64,000 bases of DNA, from assembly GCA_963705915.1 (NCBI GenBank), contig OY970126.1, positions 687,893-751,892 on the forward strand, in the 5' to 3' direction. The notes under the pieces are model-generated. The model was given only the letters and a program-made list of their open reading frames with translations, was not told the origin of the DNA and ran no database searches. Position numbers and translations under genes: made by a program. Shown here one piece after another: positions 1 to 47,900 of the stretch (positions are counted from its first letter, which is position 1; each line of letters starts with the position of its first letter). This DNA comes from an uncultured bacterium (GTDB lineage Bacteria > Patescibacteriota > Minisyncoccia > UBA6257 > 2-01-FULL-56-20).

Positions 1-435
1 ATTGCCGCGCGCCCCGAGCCTTCGGCTTATTTCCCGGCACCGCGCCTCATCTGCGTTTTGAGTTCTGCAGGCGGCGGCCGCGACCGTTGGAAGCGGCCCG
101 CGATGGGCGAGGTTGCAAATCAATATTGCGATGAAATTATTTTGACCGACGAAGACCCGTATGATGAAAATCCTGCAAAGATTATTGACGAGATCGAAGC
201 GGGGATCGTGCACGCGAATCCCGATCGTCCGCCGGTACAAAAAATTATGGACCGCCGCGCCGCGATCCGCGCCGCGGTGAACGCGATGCGCGAGGGCGAC
301 GTCGTGATCGGCACGGGCAAAGGCAGCGAAGAATTCATTCATCTCGCCCGCGGCAGAAAAACCCCTTGGAGCGAACGGACGATGTTCGAAGAAGCACTGA
401 GGAATAAATTTGAAAATGAAATGGCCTCGTCGTGA
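1..435 (+). CDS. Mur ligase family C-terminal domain protein (MurE/MurF-like); 5'-truncated at window edge
   Basis: ORF is open to position 1; motif ...DRRAAIRAAVNAMREGDVVIGTGKGSEE... matches the Mur ligase C-terminal domain. Confidence 0.55.
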   Translation: MAARPEPSAYFPAPRLICVLSSAGGGRDRWKRPAMGEVANQYCDEIILTDEDPYDENPAKIIDEIEAGIVHANPDRPPVQKIMDRRAAIRAAVNAMREGDVVIGTGKGSEEFIHLARGRKTPWSERTMFEEALRNKFENEMASS

Positions 436-2852: not shown

Positions 2853-3236
2853 ATGAAAAAACGACCATTAAAAAAATCTAAAAAAACAGTGCGGAGAGGA
2901 AAGCCCGCAAAGCGCTCCGCAAAAAAGAAAGCTTCGAAAAAGCGTTCTCCGAAAAAGACCGGCTCTTCGCGGGGAGGTTCCATGGTTTTCGGCAAGCCAG
3001 TGGGCATTGTGACCCATTATTTCACGGAGATCAGCGTTGCGATCGTGAAATTCAACAAAAAGATTCCGGCCGGATCGAAGCTCCATTATAAAGGAGCGAC
3101 CACGGATTTTATGGACACCGCGAAATCGATGCAGTACGACCACAATGAAATTAAAGCGGCACCAAAAGGAAAGCAGGTCGGTATCAAAGTAAAGAAGCGC
3201 GTGCGCGAAGGGGATCGCGTGCACCATGTCGGATAA
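2853..3236 (+). CDS. hypothetical protein with lysine-rich (histone H1-like) N-terminal tail and small translation-factor-domain-2-like beta-barrel
   Basis: first ~40 aa are K/R/S/P-rich; C-terminal GKPVGIVTHYF...VGIKVKKRVREGDRV pattern resembles EF-Tu/IF2 domain II. Confidence 0.5.
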   Translation: MKKRPLKKSKKTVRRGKPAKRSAKKKASKKRSPKKTGSSRGGSMVFGKPVGIVTHYFTEISVAIVKFNKKIPAGSKLHYKGATTDFMDTAKSMQYDHNEIKAAPKGKQVGIKVKKRVREGDRVHHVG

Positions 3237-4338
3237 TTTTGAAATCGCGGGGATCGTTGCCGCCGCGACGGTAGGCGACGGCGTCTTTGCCCTTCCTTAC
3301 GTTTTCTATAACGCTGGCTGGCTCACCGGTATTTTTTATTTGTTGATTCTTGCGGGATTTGTGATTACGGCCCATGTTGTCTATCTGAAAGTACTTGAAT
3401 CTGAAGGTGAAAAGCAAAGACTGTTCGGGCTCGCAGAAAAATACTTCGGAAAAACCGGGTTTTGGGTTGGTTTTCTCGCAATCGTGATCGGGCTGTTGCT
3501 CACACTTGTTGCCTACCTCATTTTAGGAACGCAATTTATCCATCTCGCATTGCCCGGCGTGCCGCTCGATTACGGTTTTGTTGTGTTTTGGCTCATCATT
3601 TCCATCGTTGCGCTTTCAAATGACAAAGAAATCCGCGAACTCGAACTCGTCGGTATCGGTTGCACGTCGCTCATTATCATCATTATTTTTGCTTCAGCGT
3701 GGCCGAATATTTTTTTCAATGGTGTGCCCGCAGTGCATTGGCAAAATCTTTTCCTACCATTCGGTGCCGTTCTTTTTTCGCTTGCCGGATGGACGAGCAT
3801 CGAACCGGCGTATGAAGCCCGCAAAGGTTCCTCAAAGCGGAAACGCTCGCCCTGGAAGGCGCTCGCGATAGGCACACTTTTCGCCGCACTTCTCTATGCG
3901 ATGTTTGCATCGGGAATTCTCGGTTCCACGTCGTCTTCCATGATCACGCCCGACACCGCATCGGGGCTCGCCGCGTGGCCGTTCTGGAAAAAAGATTTGC
4001 TCGCAGCGCTCGGTCTCCTTGCGGTCGCAACGGTCTATCTCCCGATTTCGCGGGAAATAAAAAATGCGCTGGAAAAAGATTTGAAATGGCCGCGCGGTTC
4101 GTCACGCCCGCTCGTCGTGCTCGTGCCGCCCGCGCTTATTCTCCTCGGCGTCAATAACTTTTTGGCAGTCGTCGGCCTCGTCGGCGGCGTATTCCTCAGT
4201 CTGCAATACCTTCTCATCATTTCCGTCGGCCGCCGCGCGCTCAAATTGAAAACTGGTGTAAACGTTGCGCTCGACATCATCGCCATCGTTTTCATCGTCG
4301 CTGCAGTTTACTCGGTGTGGCAGTTCATAGTAAGATAG
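3226..4338 (+). CDS. amino acid permease-like polytopic membrane protein (Trp/Tyr-permease / AAAP-like)
   Basis: about 11 hydrophobic helices; N-terminal IAGIVAAATVGDGVFALPYVF resembles amino-acid transporter signature; overlaps previous gene by 11 nt. Confidence 0.55.
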   Translation: MSDNFEIAGIVAAATVGDGVFALPYVFYNAGWLTGIFYLLILAGFVITAHVVYLKVLESEGEKQRLFGLAEKYFGKTGFWVGFLAIVIGLLLTLVAYLILGTQFIHLALPGVPLDYGFVVFWLIISIVALSNDKEIRELELVGIGCTSLIIIIIFASAWPNIFFNGVPAVHWQNLFLPFGAVLFSLAGWTSIEPAYEARKGSSKRKRSPWKALAIGTLFAALLYAMFASGILGSTSSSMITPDTASGLAAWPFWKKDLLAALGLLAVATVYLPISREIKNALEKDLKWPRGSSRPLVVLVPPALILLGVNNFLAVVGLVGGVFLSLQYLLIISVGRRALKLKTGVNVALDIIAIVFIVAAVYSVWQFIVR

Positions 4339-8127: not shown

Positions 8128-10627
8128 CGTAGCGAGCCCCGTCGAATGGTATTTTGACGATCCGCGCCTGCGAATGACGGTCGCCGGCCGTGCGCTCGTG
8201 CGCGTGATAAGCTACGTGAGCTATCTCGTGCTCGTTGCCGCCGCCATCACGTTCCTCATTTCCGAAATTCCGTTTTTTTATTGTGCCGGACTTTTTATCA
8301 TTCTCATCCTGCTTGACCAATGGTTCCATCGCGGCGAGGGCGACGTGCCAATTTCTGAATTTCCCAAGGGCGGCCGGGTGAATATTGCAAAAGCAATGCG
8401 CCCGCAAGCGGCGAGCGTGCTTGGCCGCGCCGTTGACCGTGCCACAATCACCAAGCGTTCATTTTTCCTTGAAGTTGCATCGCGTTTCATCGAACTGCCT
8501 GAGATCGAAGAAGGCCTCGTGCGGCTCGACGTGAAGCCCGAGGAGTTCAAGCAAAAACTTAATGATTTTTTAACACAACCACCAGGGAAGGAGGATTATC
8601 AAGCAAAAGCAGCGTTGCTCGCGGGCGAGGCGTTCGCCATCGCGGTTCAAAACGGACACGACTTCATCGGCTGCGACGATATTTTTTCGGCGCTTGCGAA
8701 CGTGCACGACGAGATGATCGATCGGCTGTTCGAGCTTTTCGATTGCAGCGCGAACGATCTTGAGCGCGCCCTCATTTTTGGATCGTCATCAAGCAGGCGG
8801 CGATTTGGGCGCCTGCCGATGTCGCTCGGGGGATTTGTTTTCGATTCTCACCGCGAAATCCGGCATCGCATTATGAACCGCGCGTGGACGTCACGGCCGA
8901 CGCCGACGCTCGACCGCTACGCAACGGACTTTACCGATCTCGCACGCGACACGCACGTCGGATTCATGATCGGCCACAGCGAAGAATATGAACGTCTCGT
9001 CGAAACGCTCGGCAGACCGGTGAACCCGAATGCAATCCTTGTGGGTGAAGCCGGCGTTGGGAAGGAGACGATCGTCCAGCATCTTGCCTTCATGCTCACC
9101 AAAGACGATGTCCCGAAAGATCTTTTTGATAAACGCCTCGTCGCGCTTGACATACAAGGACTCGTCGCCGGCGCGCCGCCGGAAGAATTGAATAAACGGC
9201 TGCGCGAAATCGTTGACGAGATCGAAACCGCAGGCAACATCATCCTCTATATCCCGGACATTCACAACCTTGTGAAGACATCCGGCACGGCATTTATTTC
9301 CGCCGCCGATGCCCTGATGCCGGTTGTGATGAGCGATAGATTTCCGGTCGTGGGGTCAACCTATCCAAAAGAATTCAAAGCCGCGATTGAACCGCGGAGC
9401 GATTTCGTTGGCGCATTCGAGGTGATTCACGTGCAAGAAGTGAGTCCGGAAGAAGCCGAAAAAATTCTCACCTACGAGTGCCTCATTCTTGAACGCGAAC
9501 ATGATATTACGATCAGTTTCGGCGCGATAAAGCGTGCGGTCGCGCTCGCCAAAAAATATTTTCACGACAAATTTCTGCCGGCGAGCGCCGAGGCCTTACT
9601 AAAGAGCGCCATCGTGCAGGCCGAAGGCCGCGCCGAAAAGACGCTTGGGCCGGATCGAGTCTCGGCCGTTGCGGAGGCAGAATTGCATATTCCTTTGCAC
9701 GAGGCCGAAGGCGAGGAATCCGAACGATTGCTCAACATGGAAAATATCATCCATGAGCGCCTTGTCGACCAGGAAGAAGCGGTAAAAGCCGTTTCCCAGG
9801 CGCTCCGCGAATACCGATCCGGCCTGTCGCGCAAAGGCGGCCCGATTGCGAGTTTTCTGTTTGTGGGACCGACGGGCGTCGGCAAGACAGAACTTGCAAA
9901 AATCCTTGCCGGCATCCAGTTCGGCTCCGAAAAGATGATGGCGCGATTCGACATGACGGAATATCAAGACAAGACCTCGTTTATGCGGTTCATCGGTTCT
10001 CCCGACGGCACAACGCACGGCGTGCTTACCGATGCGGTGCGGGAAAAGCCGTACAGCCTCGTGCTCCTCGACGAATTCGAAAAAGCACACCCCGACATCC
10101 TCAATTTATTCTTGCAGGTTCTTGACGACGGCCGCCTCACGGACAATATGGAGCGCGTTGTTGATTTTACGAATACCATCATCATCGCCACATCGAACGC
10201 TCATTCAGATTTGATCAACGATGCGCTCTCAAAAGGCGAATCAATGGGTGACATTGAAGAATATTTGAAGCAGCGACTCATCGACGTCTTCAAGCCCGAG
10301 CTTCTCAATCGATTCACAAAAATCATCGTGTTCAAAAATTTGCAGCCCGACGACTTGCGCCGGATTGTTGAAATCAATCTTCGCGAAGTGACCGAGCGCG
10401 TGAAAGAGCAGGGGATTTTTCTCGAGTTTGATCCGTCGGCAATAGCTCAGATTGCAAAGCTTGGCTACGACCCGGCGTTCGGCGCCCGTCCGCTCCGCCG
10501 CGCGATCGACGAACGCGTCCGCGCGCCGCTTTCCGAAGCGCTCTTATCGAAGAAAATTAAAAAAGGCGACAGGGTGAAGCTCGTATTTGAAAACGAAACA
10601 TTCGACTTCGTGGCGATGGCTTCATGA
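8108..10627 (+). CDS. ClpA/ClpB-like AAA+ unfoldase (two AAA modules, Clp_N domain), possibly with N-terminal transmembrane extension
   Basis: two Walker A motifs (GEAGVGKE, GPTGVGKTE), sensor/arginine-finger regions, Clp N-domain; no long M-domain and no obvious IGF/IGL loop; alternative start ATG at 8396 would remove the two predicted TM helices. Confidence 0.85.
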   Translation: MPQKVSSVASPVEWYFDDPRLRMTVAGRALVRVISYVSYLVLVAAAITFLISEIPFFYCAGLFIILILLDQWFHRGEGDVPISEFPKGGRVNIAKAMRPQAASVLGRAVDRATITKRSFFLEVASRFIELPEIEEGLVRLDVKPEEFKQKLNDFLTQPPGKEDYQAKAALLAGEAFAIAVQNGHDFIGCDDIFSALANVHDEMIDRLFELFDCSANDLERALIFGSSSSRRRFGRLPMSLGGFVFDSHREIRHRIMNRAWTSRPTPTLDRYATDFTDLARDTHVGFMIGHSEEYERLVETLGRPVNPNAILVGEAGVGKETIVQHLAFMLTKDDVPKDLFDKRLVALDIQGLVAGAPPEELNKRLREIVDEIETAGNIILYIPDIHNLVKTSGTAFISAADALMPVVMSDRFPVVGSTYPKEFKAAIEPRSDFVGAFEVIHVQEVSPEEAEKILTYECLILEREHDITISFGAIKRAVALAKKYFHDKFLPASAEALLKSAIVQAEGRAEKTLGPDRVSAVAEAELHIPLHEAEGEESERLLNMENIIHERLVDQEEAVKAVSQALREYRSGLSRKGGPIASFLFVGPTGVGKTELAKILAGIQFGSEKMMARFDMTEYQDKTSFMRFIGSPDGTTHGVLTDAVREKPYSLVLLDEFEKAHPDILNLFLQVLDDGRLTDNMERVVDFTNTIIIATSNAHSDLINDALSKGESMGDIEEYLKQRLIDVFKPELLNRFTKIIVFKNLQPDDLRRIVEINLREVTERVKEQGIFLEFDPSAIAQIAKLGYDPAFGARPLRRAIDERVRAPLSEALLSKKIKKGDRVKLVFENETFDFVAMAS

Positions 10628-10672: not shown

Positions 10673-12430
10673 ATGGCAGACACCTCGAACGCCGCAATCG
10701 CCGAAATACTTAGGGAAATAGGCGAATATCTCGACATGCAAAAAGTGCCGTTCAAGCCGCGTGCCTATGAGAAGGCCGCGCAAGTGATTGATGGCCTCGA
10801 AGAAGAAGTGGCGGACACGTATAAGATTGGCGGCGTAAAAGCACTCCTCGCGATTCCCGGCGTCGGCGCTTCGATCGCGGGCGCCATAGAAGAACTCATC
10901 AAAACCGGAAAAATAAAACAATACGAGGAACTCAAAAAAAGCACGCCGGTGCGACTCGATCAATTGGCAAAAGTGGAAGGCCTTGGTCCGAAGTCGATTC
11001 AGAGACTCTATCAGGAGCTCGGCATAAAAAATTTGGCGGATCTCGAGAAGGCCGCAAAAGCTGGTAAGATCGCAAAGCTCGAAGGTTTCGGCAAGAAAAG
11101 TGAGGAAAAAATTTTGAAAAATATCGGTTTCGCCGAGCAATCAGGTCAGCGATTTATCACGGGTGACATGCTGCCGAGGATCCGTTCGATCACGGCGAGG
11201 CTCGAAAAAGTTCCGGGCGTAAAAAAAGTGACGCCAGCCGGTTCGGCGCGTCGGCGCAAAGAAACTATTGGGGACGTTGATATCCTTGTTTCTGCAAATG
11301 ATAAGAAGACCACCGAGGCCGTGATGAAAACATTTGTTTCGATGCCGGACGTGGTGAACATAATCGCCGAAGGCCCGACGAAATCATCGGTGAAGCTTCG
11401 CGTTGGTATCAACGTGGACGTGCGCGTGGTTCCCGAAGAATCCTACGGTGCGGCTCTCAATTATTTCACCGGCTCCAAAGACCACAACGTGGCTTTAAGG
11501 AAAATTGCCGTTGCGAAAGGATGGAAGCTTAGCGAGTGGGGACTCTTCGAGCTCAAAGGTGGCAAAGAAAAAATGATCGCCGGCACGTCAGAAGAAGAAG
11601 TCTACGCCAAATTCGGCATGGAATATATTGAGCCCGAACTCCGCGAAAATACCGGCGAAATAGAACTCGCTCTGCAGCACAAATTGCCAAAAATCATCGG
11701 TTATAACGAGCTTCAAGGGGATCTCCAAACCCAAACCGATTGGACCGACGGCTCGGCTTCAATAGAAGAGATGGCAAAAGCTGCAGCGGCGCGCGGACTC
11801 AACTATATCGTGATAACCGATCACACAAAGCGCCTCGCGATGACGCACGGCCTCGATGAAAGGCGTTTGCTTCAGCAGATGGCCGAGATCGATCGCGTGA
11901 ATAAAAAAATAAGAGGAAAAATCAAAATTCTCAAAGGCACCGAGTGCGATATTTTAAAAGACGGTACGCTCGATTTGCCCGACAGCATATTATCAAAGCT
12001 CGACGTTGTCGGTGTTTCGGTGCACTCGTACTTCAATTTGCCGCGCACTGAGCAGACTGACCGCGTACTTCGCGCGATCGACAATCCGCACGTCGACATT
12101 TTATTCCACCCGACCGGACGTATCATCAACCGGCGTCCGCCGATCGATCTTGATATCGATAAGGTGATTGAACTCGCCAAGAAGACAAAAACAGTGATGG
12201 AAGTGAATTCATTCCCGGAGCGCTCAGATTTAAAGGATGAGCATGTCCGCAAATGCGTGGAGGCTGGCGTGAAGTTGGCAATCGATTCCGATGCCCACGC
12301 AACGGCCCACTTTGCCCTGCTCGAAAACGGTATCGCCGTCGCCCGTCGCGGTTGGGCGGAGAAAAAAGACGTGATCAACGCGTGGCCGATGGAGAAGATG
12401 TTGGCATCATTAAAAAATAGTAAAAAATAA
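10673..12430 (+). CDS. DNA polymerase X family protein with C-terminal PHP domain
   Basis: N-terminal HhH/pol-beta-like region (GVGASIAGAIEE), C-terminal PHP histidine motifs (ITDHTKR, HS), 585 aa. Confidence 0.9.
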   Translation: MADTSNAAIAEILREIGEYLDMQKVPFKPRAYEKAAQVIDGLEEEVADTYKIGGVKALLAIPGVGASIAGAIEELIKTGKIKQYEELKKSTPVRLDQLAKVEGLGPKSIQRLYQELGIKNLADLEKAAKAGKIAKLEGFGKKSEEKILKNIGFAEQSGQRFITGDMLPRIRSITARLEKVPGVKKVTPAGSARRRKETIGDVDILVSANDKKTTEAVMKTFVSMPDVVNIIAEGPTKSSVKLRVGINVDVRVVPEESYGAALNYFTGSKDHNVALRKIAVAKGWKLSEWGLFELKGGKEKMIAGTSEEEVYAKFGMEYIEPELRENTGEIELALQHKLPKIIGYNELQGDLQTQTDWTDGSASIEEMAKAAAARGLNYIVITDHTKRLAMTHGLDERRLLQQMAEIDRVNKKIRGKIKILKGTECDILKDGTLDLPDSILSKLDVVGVSVHSYFNLPRTEQTDRVLRAIDNPHVDILFHPTGRIINRRPPIDLDIDKVIELAKKTKTVMEVNSFPERSDLKDEHVRKCVEAGVKLAIDSDAHATAHFALLENGIAVARRGWAEKKDVINAWPMEKMLASLKNSKK

Positions 12431-13575: not shown

Positions 13576-13655
13576 GAGCGTAGGTAAACTCAATGGGAAT
13601 AAGCTTACTATAAGCCCCAGCGGATTGCAAGCAGTTTTTAAGAAAGTTTTAATGG

Positions 13656-14123
13656 GTGCTTTGGCATGATGGGCGGATGCGCTATGAAAAAGCCAAACAA
13701 AAAGCATGGGAGCACTACGCTCAAATCGAGCAAATTTTCAGCAATATTTTAAACGATTGGGTCGGATTCACACGGCTAGGATTTCACCATATCATTCGGA
13801 AGCGCGGTATTGAGAGACCAAAAAGCGAACAAAAAAGAAGATTCGAATTACTTGGGCTGGTGGGTGATATATTGCAGGATGACCAAGCCGATGTCGTTCA
13901 TCTGCGCCGAAATGTGAATCGCAAGATAAAACTACGCGGCAAAAAGGTTATGGTAATTTCCGAAGCTCACGTCTGGGTTATAAAGAGTATGATTCAAGGT
14001 AGATCTATAACTATGGTCGTACGGCAATTTAAAAAAGGTAAAAAGCATTTCCTTACAATATACGAAAACAAAAAACCCCTTCAGGAGAAAGGATTTTTTG
14101 TTTGTCCGCCGTCAACATTATAA
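13656..14123 (+). CDS. small basic protein, paralog A of a two-member family; tentative DUF4258-like putative nuclease/toxin fold
   Basis: about 45% identical over ~100 aa to ORF 42346..42699 (HHIIRKRGIERPKSEQKRRFELL / VVRQFKKGKKHFLTIY vs HLIRKRGIRRPARERKRRFRLL / VIRQFEGDSKHFLSIY); H-x3-R-x3-RGI ... hydrophobic-TIY pattern recalls DUF4258; ORF-track start is GTG, an internal ATG at 13677 is an alternative. Confidence 0.5.
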   Translation: MLWHDGRMRYEKAKQKAWEHYAQIEQIFSNILNDWVGFTRLGFHHIIRKRGIERPKSEQKRRFELLGLVGDILQDDQADVVHLRRNVNRKIKLRGKKVMVISEAHVWVIKSMIQGRSITMVVRQFKKGKKHFLTIYENKKPLQEKGFFVCPPSTL

Positions 14124-14226
14124 CGTCGACAGGAGCTACCGCCCCGCGGACTTCTTTTAGTGTAAATCCATATCGAGGCGTGTCAAATCTCTTTTAATAT
14201 TTTTTTAATGAAATCTAAGAGGGCGC

Positions 14227-27536: not shown

Positions 27537-28640
27537 ATGCGAATCATTGGCCACCTCGACATGGACGCTTTCTTTGCCTCCATTGAAGAACGGGACAATC
27601 CGCGCTTTGCCGGGCGGCCGATTGTTGTCGGCGCCGATCCAAAAGGTGGCCGCGGCAGGGGCGTTGTCTCCACCGCAAATTACAAAGCCCGCGAGTACGG
27701 TATCCGTTCAGCACTCCCGATTTCGACGGCGTGGAAAAATGCGGAAGCCGCGCGGCAAGCCGGCAAGCCAGCCGTTGTTTTTGTTGAAGGCCATTATGAA
27801 CGATATGCCGAAGTTTCCCATCGTATCATGGAGATTTTGACAACCTATGTACGGCACATCGAACAGGCGAGCGTCGACGAAGCCTATTTCGATATTTCCG
27901 AGGCCGGATCATATGAAGCGGCAGTCGACATTGCGAAGAAGATAAAAGCAGATATAAAGGCTCATGAAAAACTGACGGCTTCCATCGGCATTGGCCCGAA
28001 CAAGTTAATAGCAAAGATTGCGTCCGACCGGCAAAAACCGGACGGCCTCACCGTTGTCCGCGCGGAAGACGCAGAAGCCTTCCTCGAATCTCTTTCCGTC
28101 CGAGCCATCCCCGGCGTTGGACCAAAGACTGAAATGGCATTTAAATCATTAAAAATTTATAAAATCAAAGACGCCAAAAAGTTATCCGAAAATGACCTCG
28201 CAACGATGATGGGGAAGTGGGGTCCGGAGCTTTATAGAAAACTGCGCGGCGAAGACGACGCGCCGCTCGTTGAGTTTTGGGAAGCAAAATCCATTGGTGA
28301 GCAGGAGACGTTTGAGCATGACGTAAGCGATCCCAAAATCCTCCAGAAAGCCCTCAAAGCCTTGGCCGCAGAAGTGTATGACCGGTTTCGCGCTAGCGAC
28401 TTCACATCATTCCGCACCGTGACGCTCATTGTCCGTTTTGCCGATTTCACAACAAAAACCCGTGCAACGACGCTCGCAAAACCGGCCAGCGACCTCGAAA
28501 CCCTGCAATTCCAGTCGCTCAGGCTTTCTATGCCATTCTTTGACGCACGAGAAAATCCAAAGCGGCAAGCGTTTCGTTTGATTGGCGTGCGCCTCGAAAA
28601 ACTTGCTAATATTCCGGCGTTGGCTCTCCGGGAATCATAG
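27537..28640 (+). CDS. dinB: DNA polymerase IV (Y-family)
   Basis: HLDMDAFFASIEERDNP ... SIGIGPNKLIAKIASD; start moved to MRIIGHLDMD. Confidence 0.9.
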   Translation: MRIIGHLDMDAFFASIEERDNPRFAGRPIVVGADPKGGRGRGVVSTANYKAREYGIRSALPISTAWKNAEAARQAGKPAVVFVEGHYERYAEVSHRIMEILTTYVRHIEQASVDEAYFDISEAGSYEAAVDIAKKIKADIKAHEKLTASIGIGPNKLIAKIASDRQKPDGLTVVRAEDAEAFLESLSVRAIPGVGPKTEMAFKSLKIYKIKDAKKLSENDLATMMGKWGPELYRKLRGEDDAPLVEFWEAKSIGEQETFEHDVSDPKILQKALKALAAEVYDRFRASDFTSFRTVTLIVRFADFTTKTRATTLAKPASDLETLQFQSLRLSMPFFDARENPKRQAFRLIGVRLEKLANIPALALRES

Positions 28641-36689: not shown

Positions 36690-36769
36690 ACTATCAAGTT
36701 TAGTGATAGCACAAAAGGAAGGCAAGTTCCTTTTAATGATTTTTTAATAAATAAAAATCGGAAATAAAA

Positions 36770-39899: not shown

Positions 39900-41944
39900 C
39901 TATATCTCAATAATCACCGGCAATATCATCGGACGCCGCTTCGTCTTCGTGTACAAATATTGCCCGACCTGGTCGCGGATCAGGGTCTTCAGATAATCAG
40001 GTTCAACTTCGCGGTAGTTCGGCATCCGAGTGCATGAGTCCGCGGATGCGCTTGCGGATTTCATCGAGGATCTCCTGATTTTCTTTGAGGTAGATAAAGC
40101 CGCGCGAGATGATGTCGGGATTTTTGAGGACGCGGCCTTTGTCGCGGTCCATCGTGAGGATGATGACGATCATGCCTTCGGCGGCGAGCGCGCGGCGGTC
40201 GCGCAAGACGACTTCTTCAACGTCGCCAACGCCGAGGCCGTCTACCATCACGTAGAAGGCGGGGACTTCCTCGCTCGTGACCAAAAATTTTCCCGGCGTG
40301 AGTTCGGCGACCTGGCCGTTGTCCATGAGGATGACGTTTTCTTTCGGGATGCCGACTTCCTGGGCGGAATGGCCGTTCGCGGCGCGCATGAAGTAGTAGC
40401 CGTGCACCGGCACCAAGAATTTCGGCTTGATGAGTTTCATGACGAGCTTCAAGTCGTCTTTCGGCGCATGGCCGGATGAGTGGATGTCGACGAGCGCCGA
40501 GTGATACACCGATCGCGCCTTGGCGCGCGAGATTATCTTTCACGCTTTGCACGCTGCGTTCGTTGCCCGGAATGATGGATGACGACAAGACGAACGTGTC
40601 GCCGGGCTTGATCTTGATGTGCCGGTGTTCGCCGTTGATCATCTTCATGAGGCCGGCGTTCGATTCGCCTTGCGCGCCCGTCGAGAGGATCATGATTTTC
40701 TCATCTTTATACTTCGCCACTTCCTCAACGGAAATGATCGTGCCTTCTTTCGCTTTCACAAAGCCAAGCTTTGCGCGATCTGGATGTTCGTTTTCATCGA
40801 ATAGCCGTTGAGCGCCACTTTGCGCCCGAGTTTTTCGGCGATCTTGATGATCTCCGCGATGCGCGTGAGGAGCGATGCGAATGTTGCGACGATGATGCGG
40901 CCTTCTGCTTTCGCTGAAAATTTCTTCAAGATTGCGCTCCACGGTTTTTTCGGAAACGGAGTGGCCGGGTTTTTCGGCGTTCGTGCTGTCTACCATAAAG
41001 CTGTGAATGCCCATCTTGCCGATACTTTCGAATTCTTCGAGGCCTTGCGGTTCGCCCTCGTCGTTGTAGTCAACGCGAAAGTCGGCGAAGTGCACGATGT
41101 TGCCTGCAGGCGTTTTCATCAAAACGCCCGTCGTTTCGGGAATCGTGTGCGGCACGCCGAAGAAGACGCGCGCCAAAGTTCGGCGAAATTTTCACTTCGG
41201 TCGCCATTCTTTACCGTGATCACATTCATCTTCGGCGAGTTCGGAAAATCTTCCTGCCGTTTTTCGATGATCGCTTTCGTGATCGATGTCGCGTAGATCG
41301 GGGGATTGCCGAGGCGTGCGAGCAAGTGCGGCAACGCGCCGATATGGTCGTAGTGGCCGTGCGTCAAAATGATCGCCGGCGATATTTTCTTTTTTCTTTT
41401 CGAGATATTGGATGTTCGGGATGATGTAGTCGATGCCCGGCGTTTCGTCTTCGGGGAACTGCAACCCGACGTCGATGATGACGATTTCATTCTTATATTC
41501 GAGGAACATGCAGTTGCGGCCGACTTCTTCGAGGCCGCCGAGCGGCACAAAACGGACCGCGTCCGGATTCGGTTTGATTGCTGCGGCGCCTCCGGCGCTT
41601 TCCTGCGCGACAAGCGATTTCGACGGGCCGAATTTCCCCGCGCTCGAAGCTTTCACGGCGCCGGGGTGTCCGCCCGGCATACGATCGCGTCGATCCCGGC
41701 GTGGGCGTTTTGGTCCGCCCGGTCCGCCTGGACCGCGTTCGCGCGAAGGACGTTCACTTGGCGCGTCGCCAGGCGCCGTCTTGCGCGAAGGTTCATCGGC
41801 GGGCCTTTTCGGCTTTTGTTCCGCAGGCGCTCCGGGCTTTGGCCGCGGCCGGATTGTGGGCGGCTTTATCCGCGGCCGCTCCAAAGGAGCCGTCGCGTTG
41901 TGTGGTGCTGCGTTTTGCAGCTCATTGCTATCAGTTTTTTTCAT
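39900..41944 (-). pseudogene. rnj: ribonuclease J, reading frame broken by at least six +/-1 frameshifts; N-terminal Pro/Arg-rich low-complexity extension
   Basis: RNase J-homologous segments (GIDYIIPNIQYL / IILTHGHYDHIG / KFRRTLARVFFGVPHTIPETTG...NIVHFADF / KAEGRIIVATFAS / ILSTGAQGE...SSSIIPGNE / DIHSSGH...KPKF / LYTKTKRRPMILPVIIEI) alternate between minus-strand frames near 41375-41400, 41175-41185, 40910-40927, 40757-40775, 40505-40515 and 40010-40035; at least two shifts sit in homopolymer runs (gaaaa/ttt at about 41175-41185; aaaaagaaaa run at about 41375-41400). Confidence 0.7.
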
Positions 41945-41983
41945 AGTCGCTATGTAATTGTTTTTATTAATTTTTAATCTTTG

Positions 41984-42067
41984 TGCCGAGGAGGAGATTC
42001 GAACTCCTATGACCTTGCGGTCGCTGGTACCTGAAACCAGTGCGTCTGCCAGTTCCGCCACCTCGGC
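41984..42067 (-). tRNA. tRNA-Leu (anticodon CAG), type II with long variable arm
   Basis: manual cloverleaf on the reverse complement: acceptor GCCGAGG/CCTCGGC, anticodon stem CTGGT/ACCAG with loop TTCAGGT, variable arm GACC-GCAA-GGTC, T-arm AGGAG-TTCGAAT-CTCCT, discriminator A. Confidence 0.8.
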
Positions 42068-42258
42068 AGGAAAACGAACATCAAAACTAAGCCTTGTGGC
42101 TCAGTTCTTTTCTCGAGGAAACAGGTTTCATTTCGATTGCGGGAAGAAGGAGGGTTTGTCTTGGAAATTAGAGTATAGCATGGCGTTCATTAAAAAGTCA
42201 AGACATTAAAAAATTATTGAGATAGAGTTGACTTTATTACGCATGGCAATAGACTGTA

Positions 42259-42313
42259 GATATGCCCGCGGGATGACTAATCCCCTTCGGCATATCGCTG
42301 AAGCGGGCATATC
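42259..42313. repeat. 11-bp perfect inverted repeat gatatgcccgc ... gcgggcatatc flanking a 33-nt spacer
   Basis: read directly; lies between tRNA-Leu and DUF4258-like paralog B, abutting the terminator. Confidence 0.5.
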
Positions 42314-42340
42314 AAAAAACACCCGGAAAGGTGTTTTTTG
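42314..42340. terminator. bidirectional intrinsic terminator aaaaaacacc-cggaaa-ggtgtttttt
   Basis: A-run / stem / T-run; 6 nt from the stop of gene 42346..42699. Confidence 0.65.
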
Positions 42341-42345
42341 ATATG

Positions 42346-42699
42346 TTAATAGATGCTAAGAAAATGCTTACTGTCACCCTCAAACTGCCTGATAACCACA
42401 GTCACTTTTTGGCTGCGGATAGTCTTCTTGAAAGCCCAAAATTCTCCTCTCGATATTTTTATCTTTCTTGACTTGGACCGACCGACGAAACGAGCAATTC
42501 CTTCTGCTCTTCTGTAAGAAAATATTGCATTCGGATCGGTGACTATATCTTTCGCATAACGAAGAAGTCGAAATCTTCTTTTTCGCTCACGTGCTGGCCG
42601 TCGAATGCCTCGTTTACGGATAAGATGTCGTAGGCCGATGCTGTTAAAGATGATGTAGTCATGTAGTTTTGGACACCAAATGCGGCTTGGAAATTTCAT
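42346..42699 (-). CDS. small basic protein, paralog B of the two-member family; tentative DUF4258-like
   Basis: homologous to ORF 13656..14123; 117 aa, pI strongly basic; a 7-bp-arm palindrome taatgacatgaccgtcatta lies just upstream (about 42706-42725). Confidence 0.5.
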   Translation of the reverse strand: MKFPSRIWCPKLHDYIIFNSIGLRHLIRKRGIRRPARERKRRFRLLRYAKDIVTDPNAIFSYRRAEGIARFVGRSKSRKIKISRGEFWAFKKTIRSQKVTVVIRQFEGDSKHFLSIY

Positions 42700-42748
42700 C
42701 CAACCATAATGACATGACCGTCATTAAATTTAGGTTAATTTTTTAGCC

Positions 42749-47805: not shown

Positions 47806-47900
47806 CTCAAAATCGGTTGACCAATCGGCTCTCTGCCGTTATTATATCAATATCAAAAGTCATTAAAAAATTATGAAATCAGTAGCTAGTAATTACTCAT

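Follow-up and report, generated by a model that had tools for sequence, protein, structure and literature searches.

A small LPD3-family protein gene and a convergent three-way-junction RNA gene form an insertable cassette in Patescibacteria

A 64,000-nucleotide stretch of the genome of an uncultured member of the Patescibacteriota (contig OY970126.1 of assembly GCA_963705915.1; hereafter the window, meaning this whole stretch) contains, close to a gene for tRNA-Leu, a small and very basic open reading frame (ORF) that is surrounded by an inverted repeat, a terminator-like hairpin and a palindrome. This locus raises the question whether the repeats mark a site at which a mobile element has entered next to a tRNA gene, as an earlier note on this DNA had supposed, or whether they belong together with the ORF in a functional unit, and what such a unit might do. 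The analysis described here shows that the region is one copy of a compact, insertable two-gene cassette, composed of the ORF and a convergent small RNA (sRNA) gene, which has so far been encountered only in the Candidate Phyla Radiation (CPR, Patescibacteria). The elements of the focal locus are the following:

42346..42699, minus strand: focal ORF, encoding protein W2 of 117 aa plus stop, assigned to a stand-alone LPD3-domain family.
42259-42269 and 42303-42313: arms of an 11-nt perfect inverted repeat, corresponding to helix P1 of the small RNA.
42308-42345: bidirectional intrinsic terminator hairpin with 16-nt perfect arms (42308-42323 / 42330-42345), flanked by a run of A and a run of T on opposite sides.
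42707-42726: palindrome TAATGAC-ATGACC-GTCATTA, which overlaps and brackets the -10 box of the focal ORF.
42201-42172, minus strand: tRNA-Leu promoter TTGACT-18-TATACT, in the flank outside the cassette, marking the insertion boundary.
41983..42067, minus strand: tRNA-Leu(CAG), the sole tRNA-Leu found in the window.

The ORF is present on the minus strand with the expected 117 codons, and both the 11-bp inverted repeat and the hairpin with the shape of a bidirectional terminator were recovered as previously described; the structure that they form exceeds chance, as the 89-nt stretch 42257-42345 folds with -43.8 kcal/mol (z = -7.3) and none of 200 shuffles folded as well. The position of the ORF had been given as immediately 3' of the tRNA-Leu gene, which had to be corrected: the two share the minus strand, on which the ORF is situated 5' (upstream) of the tRNA gene and beyond the tRNA promoter, so that this promoter and a leader of approximately 100 nt separate the two. 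A second copy of the same arrangement is present in the window at the infC locus:

13677..14123, plus strand: paralogous ORF W1, 148 aa, identical to database protein P0157 from an 827-kb contig, between rpmI/rplT and infC.
14104..14151, minus strand: paralogous RNA core (model R1, 28.4 bits, E 2.6e-6; model R2, 41.3 bits, E 2.9e-10).
14159..14209, minus strand: paralogous sRNA promoter, with UP-like element ATTAAAAAAATATTAAA at 14209-14193, -35 box TTGACA at 14186-14181 and -10 box TACACT at 14164-14159.
14060..14103: paralogous terminator hairpin, within the codons of the C-terminal tail of W1.

This paralog was the only one detected when W2 was compared with the window by tblastn, and the alignment (13728..14063, plus strand) was 39% identical (47 of 121 columns, E 8e-22; 38-39% in a MAFFT alignment), which confirms the relationship that had been reported and lowers the approximately 45% identity that had been attached to it. 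At both loci, the strand opposite the ORF displays the same predicted fold, which combines a closing helix and two hairpins with an A-rich linker and a terminator, and the fold at the infC locus is even more stable than that at the focal locus (-46.8 kcal/mol, z = -8.4). The paralogous RNA core is convergent with W1 and overlaps its last codons. At the focal locus, the RNA core has the following layout:

42260-42313, plus strand: RNA core of ~55 nt, a three-way junction (covariance model, 53.4 bits, E 6e-14).
Within 42260-42313, plus strand: P1, AUGCCCGC/GCGGGCAU; P2, GGGAU-gacua-AUCCC; P3, UUCGGC-auauc-GCUGAA, with a conserved G.U pair in P3.

The DNA directly downstream of homologous ORFs in other genomes (loci designated below by L numbers) is more strongly conserved than the proteins themselves. 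Folding of 14 such downstream sequences, each on its own, yielded a junction closed by P1 in all 14 and a three-way junction with two hairpins in 12. Since MAFFT placed P3 out of register when aligning the RNA, covariance model R1 was seeded from five consistent sequences, all from foreign loci and none from the window, followed by realignment. When the window was scanned with this model with filters switched off, exactly two significant hits were obtained in the 64 kb, one behind each paralog and on the strand opposite to it, and the reverse strand of the focal hit scored only 17.4 bits, as compared to 53.4 for the hit itself. Application of R1 to 69 sources gave 68 hits, nearly all of them on the strand opposite the ORF and directly beyond its 3' end, and the rebuilt model R2 also detected the RNA behind members of a larger, more distant protein subfamily. 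Among 58 distinct ORFs for which 130 nt or more of downstream sequence were available, the RNA was found at 52, with a median distance of 29 nt (often 8-16 nt) between stop codon and core, and R2 found no RNA in three loci without the ORF. Extra RNA copies without a family ORF called beside them, that is, apparent orphans, occur at L008 (5841-5895, plus strand) and L041 (2838-2892, minus strand), and one of the copies in these two loci is inverted and lies just upstream of a cassette ORF.

The base-pairing pattern of the RNA was evaluated over 50 distinct sequences. Paired positions were complementary in 96.3% of the cells as compared to 36-48% in controls in which the pairing was slid, compensatory changes were found at 13 of the 18 base pairs, and the number of cells in which both sides had changed (117) was not reached in any of 500 shuffles, which contained 33; the alignment was fitted to the model and thereby favours structure, and the independent single-sequence folds and the strand asymmetry agree with it. 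The G.U pair in P3 is present in 42 of the 50 sequences, extra inserted hairpins are tolerated in P2 and P3, and stem length varies. Such a conserved G.U pair combined with stem insertions of variable length fits a functional RNA. Searches of Rfam 15, at the gathering thresholds as well as at E<=10, identified no family at threshold in the window or in 20 related loci apart from tRNA, tmRNA and the SAM riboswitch, and the best sub-threshold match at the focal region was RNAI, with 21 bits against a gathering score of 47. The alternative that the transcript is a leaderless mRNA was considered in view of its AUG start and was rejected, as neither the length nor the sequence of the reading frames is constant from locus to locus. 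Taken together, the comparative evidence indicates that the inverted repeat and the terminator are a conserved, highly structured predicted sRNA gene that accompanies the protein family almost everywhere. The earlier remark that no antitoxin-like partner is evident at either locus thus applies to ORFs, and the partner appears to be the convergent sRNA gene.

Both genes of the cassette are preceded by recognizable, although very different, predicted expression signals:

42205..42221, plus strand: UP-like element ATTAAAAAATTATTGAG, A/T-rich, 6 nt upstream of the sRNA -35 box.
42228..42255, plus strand: sRNA promoter TTGACT-16-TAGACT, with the -35 box at 42228-42233 and the -10 box at 42250-42255.
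42714-42706, minus strand: extended -10 box TGTCATTAT, with exactly 6 nt between its end and the focal ATG.

The sRNA promoter is of the sigma-70 type and was found in the form TTGACN-16..19-NAnnnT (mostly TAnnnT, with a spacer of mostly 16-18) at 50 of 52 distinct RNA loci. It ends at a fixed distance of ~4 nt before the model hit, which places the predicted start of the RNA at the first bases of P1 (~42260-42262 at the focal locus); with a predicted 3' end at ~42340, its length would be ~80-85 nt. In most family loci, a consensus ATTAAAAAATCATTAAA is located ~5 nt upstream of the sRNA -35 box. This A/T motif occurs eight times in the window, where 0.38 occurrences are expected, usually with a -35-like hexamer a few bases downstream, and its copies elsewhere in the window are:

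8558-8574, 12409-12425, 28148-28164, 36732-36748 (perfect), 41962-41978 and 47862-47878: A/T motif ATTAAAAAATCATTAAA.

The motif is therefore a candidate genome-wide UP element in the host CPR lineage. The possibility that the A/T motif TTTAATGATTTTTTAAT, which is present at each end of the cassette, could form the terminal direct repeats of a mobile element was considered as well, and was dismissed in view of the eight window copies and their usual position upstream of -35 boxes. The ORF is preceded by a TGn-NAnnnT box exactly 6 nt before the ATG, without a -35 box, at 40 of 52 distinct family loci, and its mRNA is thus predicted to be leaderless and transcribed from an extended -10 promoter. 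The terminator is common to the sRNA and the convergent ORF mRNA, the predicted transcripts being complementary there; it abuts the 3' end of the ORF at the focal locus and overlaps it in most loci. The palindrome upstream of the focal ORF exists, one base away from the position that had been reported, but the suggestion that it is an operator did not extend to the family: inverted repeats with arms of at least 6 bp upstream of the ORF were found at 7 of 50 loci as compared to 4.6% of shuffles, and the mean best arm was 3.98 as compared to 3.70 in shuffles. Apart from this small excess of long arms, arm lengths resemble those in shuffled sequences. A conserved operator was accordingly not supported, and the palindrome seems specific for this locus, with an operator function there as a weak possibility.

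The focal protein W2 is small and very basic (pI 11.7, 32 K+R). A word-indexed search with W2 detected seven relatives (phmmer E down to 2.8e-25), while an exhaustive HMM search yielded 1181 cluster representatives at E<=1e-3 and 624 at E<=1e-10, nearly all of which are stand-alone proteins of 110-160 aa. Among the 302 members collected by profile search, those with a named source are all annotated as 'hypothetical' and derive from Paceibacterota, Parcubacteria or Patescibacteria, and genome-contig loci of the family come additionally from Saccharibacteria, Minisyncoccia and Magasanikiibacteriota. The Pfam domain LPD3 (PF18798) matched over its whole profile in 84 of 121 aligned members (E<=0.1), and several homologs exceed its curated cut-off of 27 bits (P0187, 33.5 bits; P0166, 29.4; P0200, 28.9). 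As W2 has no LPD3 match of its own and its homologs match the whole profile, its membership of LPD3 is transitive, and these profile matches support a large, CPR-restricted family of stand-alone LPD3-domain proteins.

Besides LPD3, the RNase-related domains PBECR2 and PBECR3 were matched in 24 and 3 of the 121 members, respectively, the PBECR2 alignments covering the His helix through the C-terminal strands; the best of these matches had E 1.1e-4, and the best bit score viewed in detail was 21.2, below the cut-off of 27.1. PBECR RNases carry a His in a helix and a S/T in a strand (Iyer et al. 2017, PMC5512222). The family displays this pattern: G22, H25, R28, R42 and F113 (W2 numbering) are invariant, and K29, R34, E38, Q39, K40, R41, W88, R104, Q105, K111, H112 and S115 are conserved at >=90%, and in the AlphaFold2 (AF2) model of W2 (pLDDT 91.5) H25 lies in the N-terminal helix 20-27 (alpha1) and S115 in the last strand, 112-116. 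W2 lacks the N-terminal helix of ~21 aa of the full-length members and keeps all of the invariant and most of the near-invariant residues, for example R104, Q105, K111, H112 and S115; the paralog W1 is full length, including the extra helix (AF2 pLDDT 91.0). Foldseek searches with the AF2 models against PDB and BFVD revealed no significant neighbour, and the sole suggestive match was an LPD3 polyvalent-protein fragment (TMq 0.47). The family profile gave only noise in a sequence search of PDB, and no relatives of either the protein or the RNA pattern were detected in viral contigs and phage genomes. On the basis of the residue pattern, the protein is a putative PBECR-like RNase.

The focal insert comprises ~545 bp (42202-42745) between the stop codon of the SBP gene and the -35 box of the tRNA-Leu promoter. 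Two relatives with an SBP that is 74-75% identical (L078 and L080) have retained the order SecG-SBP-tRNA-Leu-RNase J without the cassette and without a hit of R2, RNase J being cut by the contig end in L080; in these empty sites, the SBP stop codon is separated from the tRNA-Leu promoter by 16 nt (L078) and 45 nt (L080). A third relative, L079, has other genes at this position. The cassette is encountered in a variety of housekeeping contexts, including infC/rpmI, SBP/tRNA-Leu, metK (L003), xseA/xseB (L008), rpsF/glmM (L071-73) and dprA/comM (L074-77). The copy in the infC region splits the rpmI/rplT-infC operon, and a second cassette in L008 (5968-6416) separates xseA and xseB. Two diverged copies are present within the 64 kb of the window, and GC content over both is 0.39-0.44 as compared to 0.51-0.57 in the flanks, approximately 10 points lower. 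These contexts, the empty sites and the GC dips bear out the earlier suggestion of an old cassette that has inserted at different places. Neither window copy is accompanied by flank duplications or tRNA fragments, and the cassette consists of ORF and RNA only, without an integrase.

A different situation is found in L003, where the cassette lies between a complete metK and an orphan fragment of 91 aa from the metK 3' end (3006-3278 and 3862-4137). The duplicated 3' end (260 bp, 82% identical) is mosaic and starts exactly at the right edge of the cassette, where a block with 44 of 45 positions identical also begins, which is the only such case among ~60 loci. This looks like an insertion together with a foreign replacement metK 3' end.

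Several further observations were made around individual cassettes. The left end of the infC cassette (region 13590-13660, minus strand) carries the A/T motif (13635-13656), followed toward rpmI by CTTGCA and a TAGTAA-like box. After the splitting of the operon, expression of rpmI-rplT may thus be restored by a promoter that this cassette provides or borders on. In the Saccharibacteria loci L005 and L025-L027, repeats of 66-74 bp, 94-100% identical and some of them inverted, are found on both sides of the cassette (for example, L025 3656-3729 and 2487-2560); these perhaps represent an unrelated miniature repeat family. In L003, a 153-aa gene with a weak match to the Pfam profile of PBECR3 (747-1208) is located 2 kb upstream of the cassette. 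Finally, SAM riboswitches adjoin cassettes in L001 (2146-2245, directly downstream of the sRNA promoter region) and in L003 (2044-2144, upstream of the cassette-bearing metK).

By analogy with known systems, the protein-RNA pair might work as a toxin-antitoxin-like or addiction module in which the RNA restrains a PBECR-like effector, a proposal that is given somewhat less than an even chance of being correct. The protein would be a metal-independent, PBECR-like RNA-binding or RNA-cleaving effector, and the abundant RNA would keep it in check. The main route of this restraint would be direct binding of the protein by the three-way junction, following a logic like that of type III systems, which is favoured by the findings that the junction is not complementary to the mRNA and that cognate 5' pairing is lacking. 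A secondary route could be the antisense overlap at the 3' ends, as in the Bacillus type I pairs txpA/RatA and bsrG/SR4. An addictive pair of this kind could persist and spread as a selfish insert in the intergenic sites of streamlined genomes. A strong RNA promoter in combination with a weak protein promoter is typical of toxin-antitoxin loci, and the corresponding asymmetry in the cassette, with an UP-like element and consensus -35 and -10 boxes for the RNA and no -35 box for the ORF, was counted in favour of this proposal. So were the LPD3 and PBECR matches of the family, its residue pattern, the confident AF2 models and the basicity of the protein, the conservation of the RNA, and the signs of insertion described above, including the apparent orphan RNA copies.

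Several results weigh against it. Complementarity between the RNA core and the 5' end of the mRNA yielded duplex energies for cognate pairs that were equal to those of non-cognate pairs (p = 0.37), which does not support a trans-acting 5' antisense mechanism. Tandem repeats were found at neither window cassette, and since the protein is no hydrophobic peptide either, the layout of the cassette fits neither of the two classical types, I or III. Direct scans of W2 against Pfam and NCBIfam gave no match, with none to LPD3 even at E<=10; all PBECR matches among the 121 members were sub-threshold; PADLOC gave no match at E<=1; PHROGs gave only matches at noise level (E >= 0.019). Moreover, six divergent ORFs among the 58 lack a detectable RNA.

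The main rival of the toxin-antitoxin-like reading is a cooperative ribonucleoprotein (RNP), in which the RNA would serve the LPD3 protein as obligate cofactor, as scaffold or as specificity element, and the complex would have a role in defence, regulation or RNA processing. Such a complex would suit the near-obligate co-occurrence of ORF and RNA, the sequence conservation of P1, P2 and the base of P3 together with the G.U pair, which suggests specific recognition by a protein, as well as the involvement in host-parasite conflicts of the phage polyvalent proteins that contain LPD3 domains. However, convergent layout, 3' overlap and asymmetry between a strong and a weak promoter are traits of antagonistic pairs, the apparent orphan RNAs beside intact cassettes fit spare antidotes better than spare cofactors, and the absence of a PADLOC match speaks against a cooperative complex as well, which makes it rather unlikely. 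An RNP of a more domestic kind, formed by a CPR-specific basic RNA-binding protein, for example a ribosome-associated one, and its dedicated RNA, would be located near translation genes by virtue of its function. The small size and strong basicity of the protein are reminiscent of a ribosomal protein, cassette copies adjoin infC/rpmI/rplT, rpsF-ssb-rpsR and a tRNA gene, and the family is confined to the CPR, whose members are without several of the standard components; yet the same site is empty in two syntenic relatives, genomes contain multiple diverged paralogs (39% identity) at unrelated sites (metK, xseA/B, dprA/comM), GC dips over both copies, one copy has an internal deletion, and operons are interrupted by the cassette rather than including it. 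A housekeeping function is consequently considered improbable.

The remaining explanations concern mobility and the nature of the repeats. The ~0.6-kb cassette might itself be mobile, as a minimal autonomous element whose LPD3 protein and RNA form an RNP that inserts it into intergenic sites or the 3' ends of genes in streamlined CPR genomes, a reading suggested by L003, where the cassette came with a replacement metK 3' end and the 44/45 block lies at its edge; in a variant, the RNA would be a structural decoy for the cellular RNA target of the protein. This is judged slightly more improbable still. The model of the earlier note, in which a cassette has integrated at a tRNA-Leu hot spot and the 11-bp inverted repeat serves for attachment or recognition, can draw on the variable space between SBP and tRNA-Leu, as illustrated by L079, and on the metK 3' duplication at the right edge of the L003 cassette, which is of the kind that integrative elements leave. 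It is nevertheless very hard to reconcile with the data: the insert lies 5' of the tRNA promoter instead of in the tRNA 3' end, next to the one tRNA-Leu, and the integrase and flanking tRNA repeat of tRNA-targeting integrative elements are missing at the window copies, so that tRNA-Leu does not appear to be the integration target. Likewise, the inverted repeat is internal to a strand-specific RNA, bounded by its own promoter and terminator and with G.U pairs and compensatory changes, which is likewise conserved at loci remote from any tRNA; the repeat is helix P1 of this RNA, and a function as attachment site is not supported. Least credible of all, and regarded as refuted, is that the repeats are mere terminator or tRNA-processing structures and the ORF an orphan hypothetical gene. 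The hairpin at 42308-42345 does resemble an ordinary bidirectional terminator, but the three-way junction is conserved in sequence and structure at 50 distinct loci with its own promoter, lies behind the second paralog without an adjacent tRNA, and is absent from the tRNA-Leu region of relatives without the ORF.

Two observations concern the neighbourhood of the focal cassette. A conserved mini-ORF of 13-14 codons is located between the tRNA-Leu(CAG) promoter and the tRNA, within the leader 42171-42068:

42131-42087, minus strand: mini-ORF in the window, peptide MKPVSSRKELSHKA.
L078 5280-5321: mini-ORF in this relative, peptide MKYARRNILSHHA.
L079 7009-7050: mini-ORF in this relative, peptide MRYARRTILSHHA.
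L080 5336-5380: mini-ORF in this relative, peptide MTSVFSRNELSHNI.

In these peptides, 'LSH' is preserved despite synonymous changes at third codon positions, the Leu codon, CTG, is that which the downstream tRNA reads, and the end of the mini-ORF overlaps a terminator-like hairpin with a U run (42108-42083 in the window). It could be that these features reflect leader-peptide attenuation of the tRNA gene. The RNase J gene, which follows tRNA-Leu on its downstream side (40003-41944, minus strand), is split over at least three frames in the window (ORFs 41192-42061, 41119-41613, 40217-41176 and 40003-40509) and is a single gene of 647-648 aa in relatives, which makes it either a pseudogene or, more likely, the result of assembly indel errors. 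In view of such possible indels, fine details of ORFs in the window are to be read with caution.

Full-text literature on LPD3/PF18798, on structured or small RNAs in CPR bacteria and on type III toxin-antitoxin systems in Patescibacteria provided no description of the protein-RNA pair. The candidate RNA family, well supported by its 50 distinct sequences and 13 of 18 covarying pairs, has no counterpart in Rfam 15. CPR/Patescibacteria genomes of ~0.8 Mb are thought to be heavily streamlined. Provided that the pair is addictive, it would be among the few described selfish elements in these bacteria, and it would represent a protein-RNA toxin-antitoxin architecture outside type I and type III. 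The functions of LPD domains have been called 'elusive' (Iyer et al. 2017, PMC5512222). For LPD3, which is widespread in phage and plasmid 'polyvalent' proteins, the cassette offers a first concrete functional handle, as the association of a stand-alone LPD3 domain with a specific RNA leads to the prediction that the LPD3 module binds or cleaves RNA; if the decoy variant were true, the cassette would moreover reveal what the LPD3 domains in phage polyvalent proteins attack. For genome annotation, it is of relevance that the cassettes interrupt conserved operons (infC-rpmI, xseA-xseB) and that the RNA gene is invisible to current pipelines.

Type I toxins are short (<60 aa), hydrophobic membrane peptides, whereas the cassette proteins have 117-150 aa, a pI of 10.4-11.7 and a predicted soluble alpha/beta fold. 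By gene layout, with the transcripts being predicted, the RNA is a cis-encoded antisense RNA that overlaps the mRNA of the presumed toxin, as in type I. The likeness to txpA/RatA and bsrG/SR4 extends to convergent genes for a protein and a small RNA, a shared or overlapping terminator with 3'-end complementarity, a strong RNA promoter next to a weaker protein promoter, and a compact, intergenic organization, often in several diverged copies per genome; the differences from these Bacillus systems reside in the soluble basic alpha/beta domain and in the RNA, whose conserved part lacks complementarity to the mRNA, with no cognate pairing detected at the 5' end. Type III antitoxins are tandem repeat arrays that lie upstream of the toxin gene on the same strand and are processed by the toxin. 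The cassette would share with ToxIN, CptIN and TenpIN the logic of a structured RNA that binds and neutralises an endoribonuclease, with the conserved helices pointing to recognition, but its RNA is single-copy, downstream and convergent on the opposite strand, and its protein lacks similarity to ToxN/AbiQ. The protein resembles the LPD3 and PBECR domains of polyvalent proteins in its family's full-length LPD3 matches, sub-threshold PBECR2/PBECR3 matches and His-helix/Ser-strand pattern, and differs from them in that polyvalent LPD3 domains are part of giant multidomain virion or conjugation proteins, whereas the cassette LPD3 stands alone, is chromosomal in CPR bacteria and is tied to an RNA. 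This RNA, finally, is like many bacterial sRNAs in Rfam in being small and structured, and in having a promoter and an intrinsic terminator.

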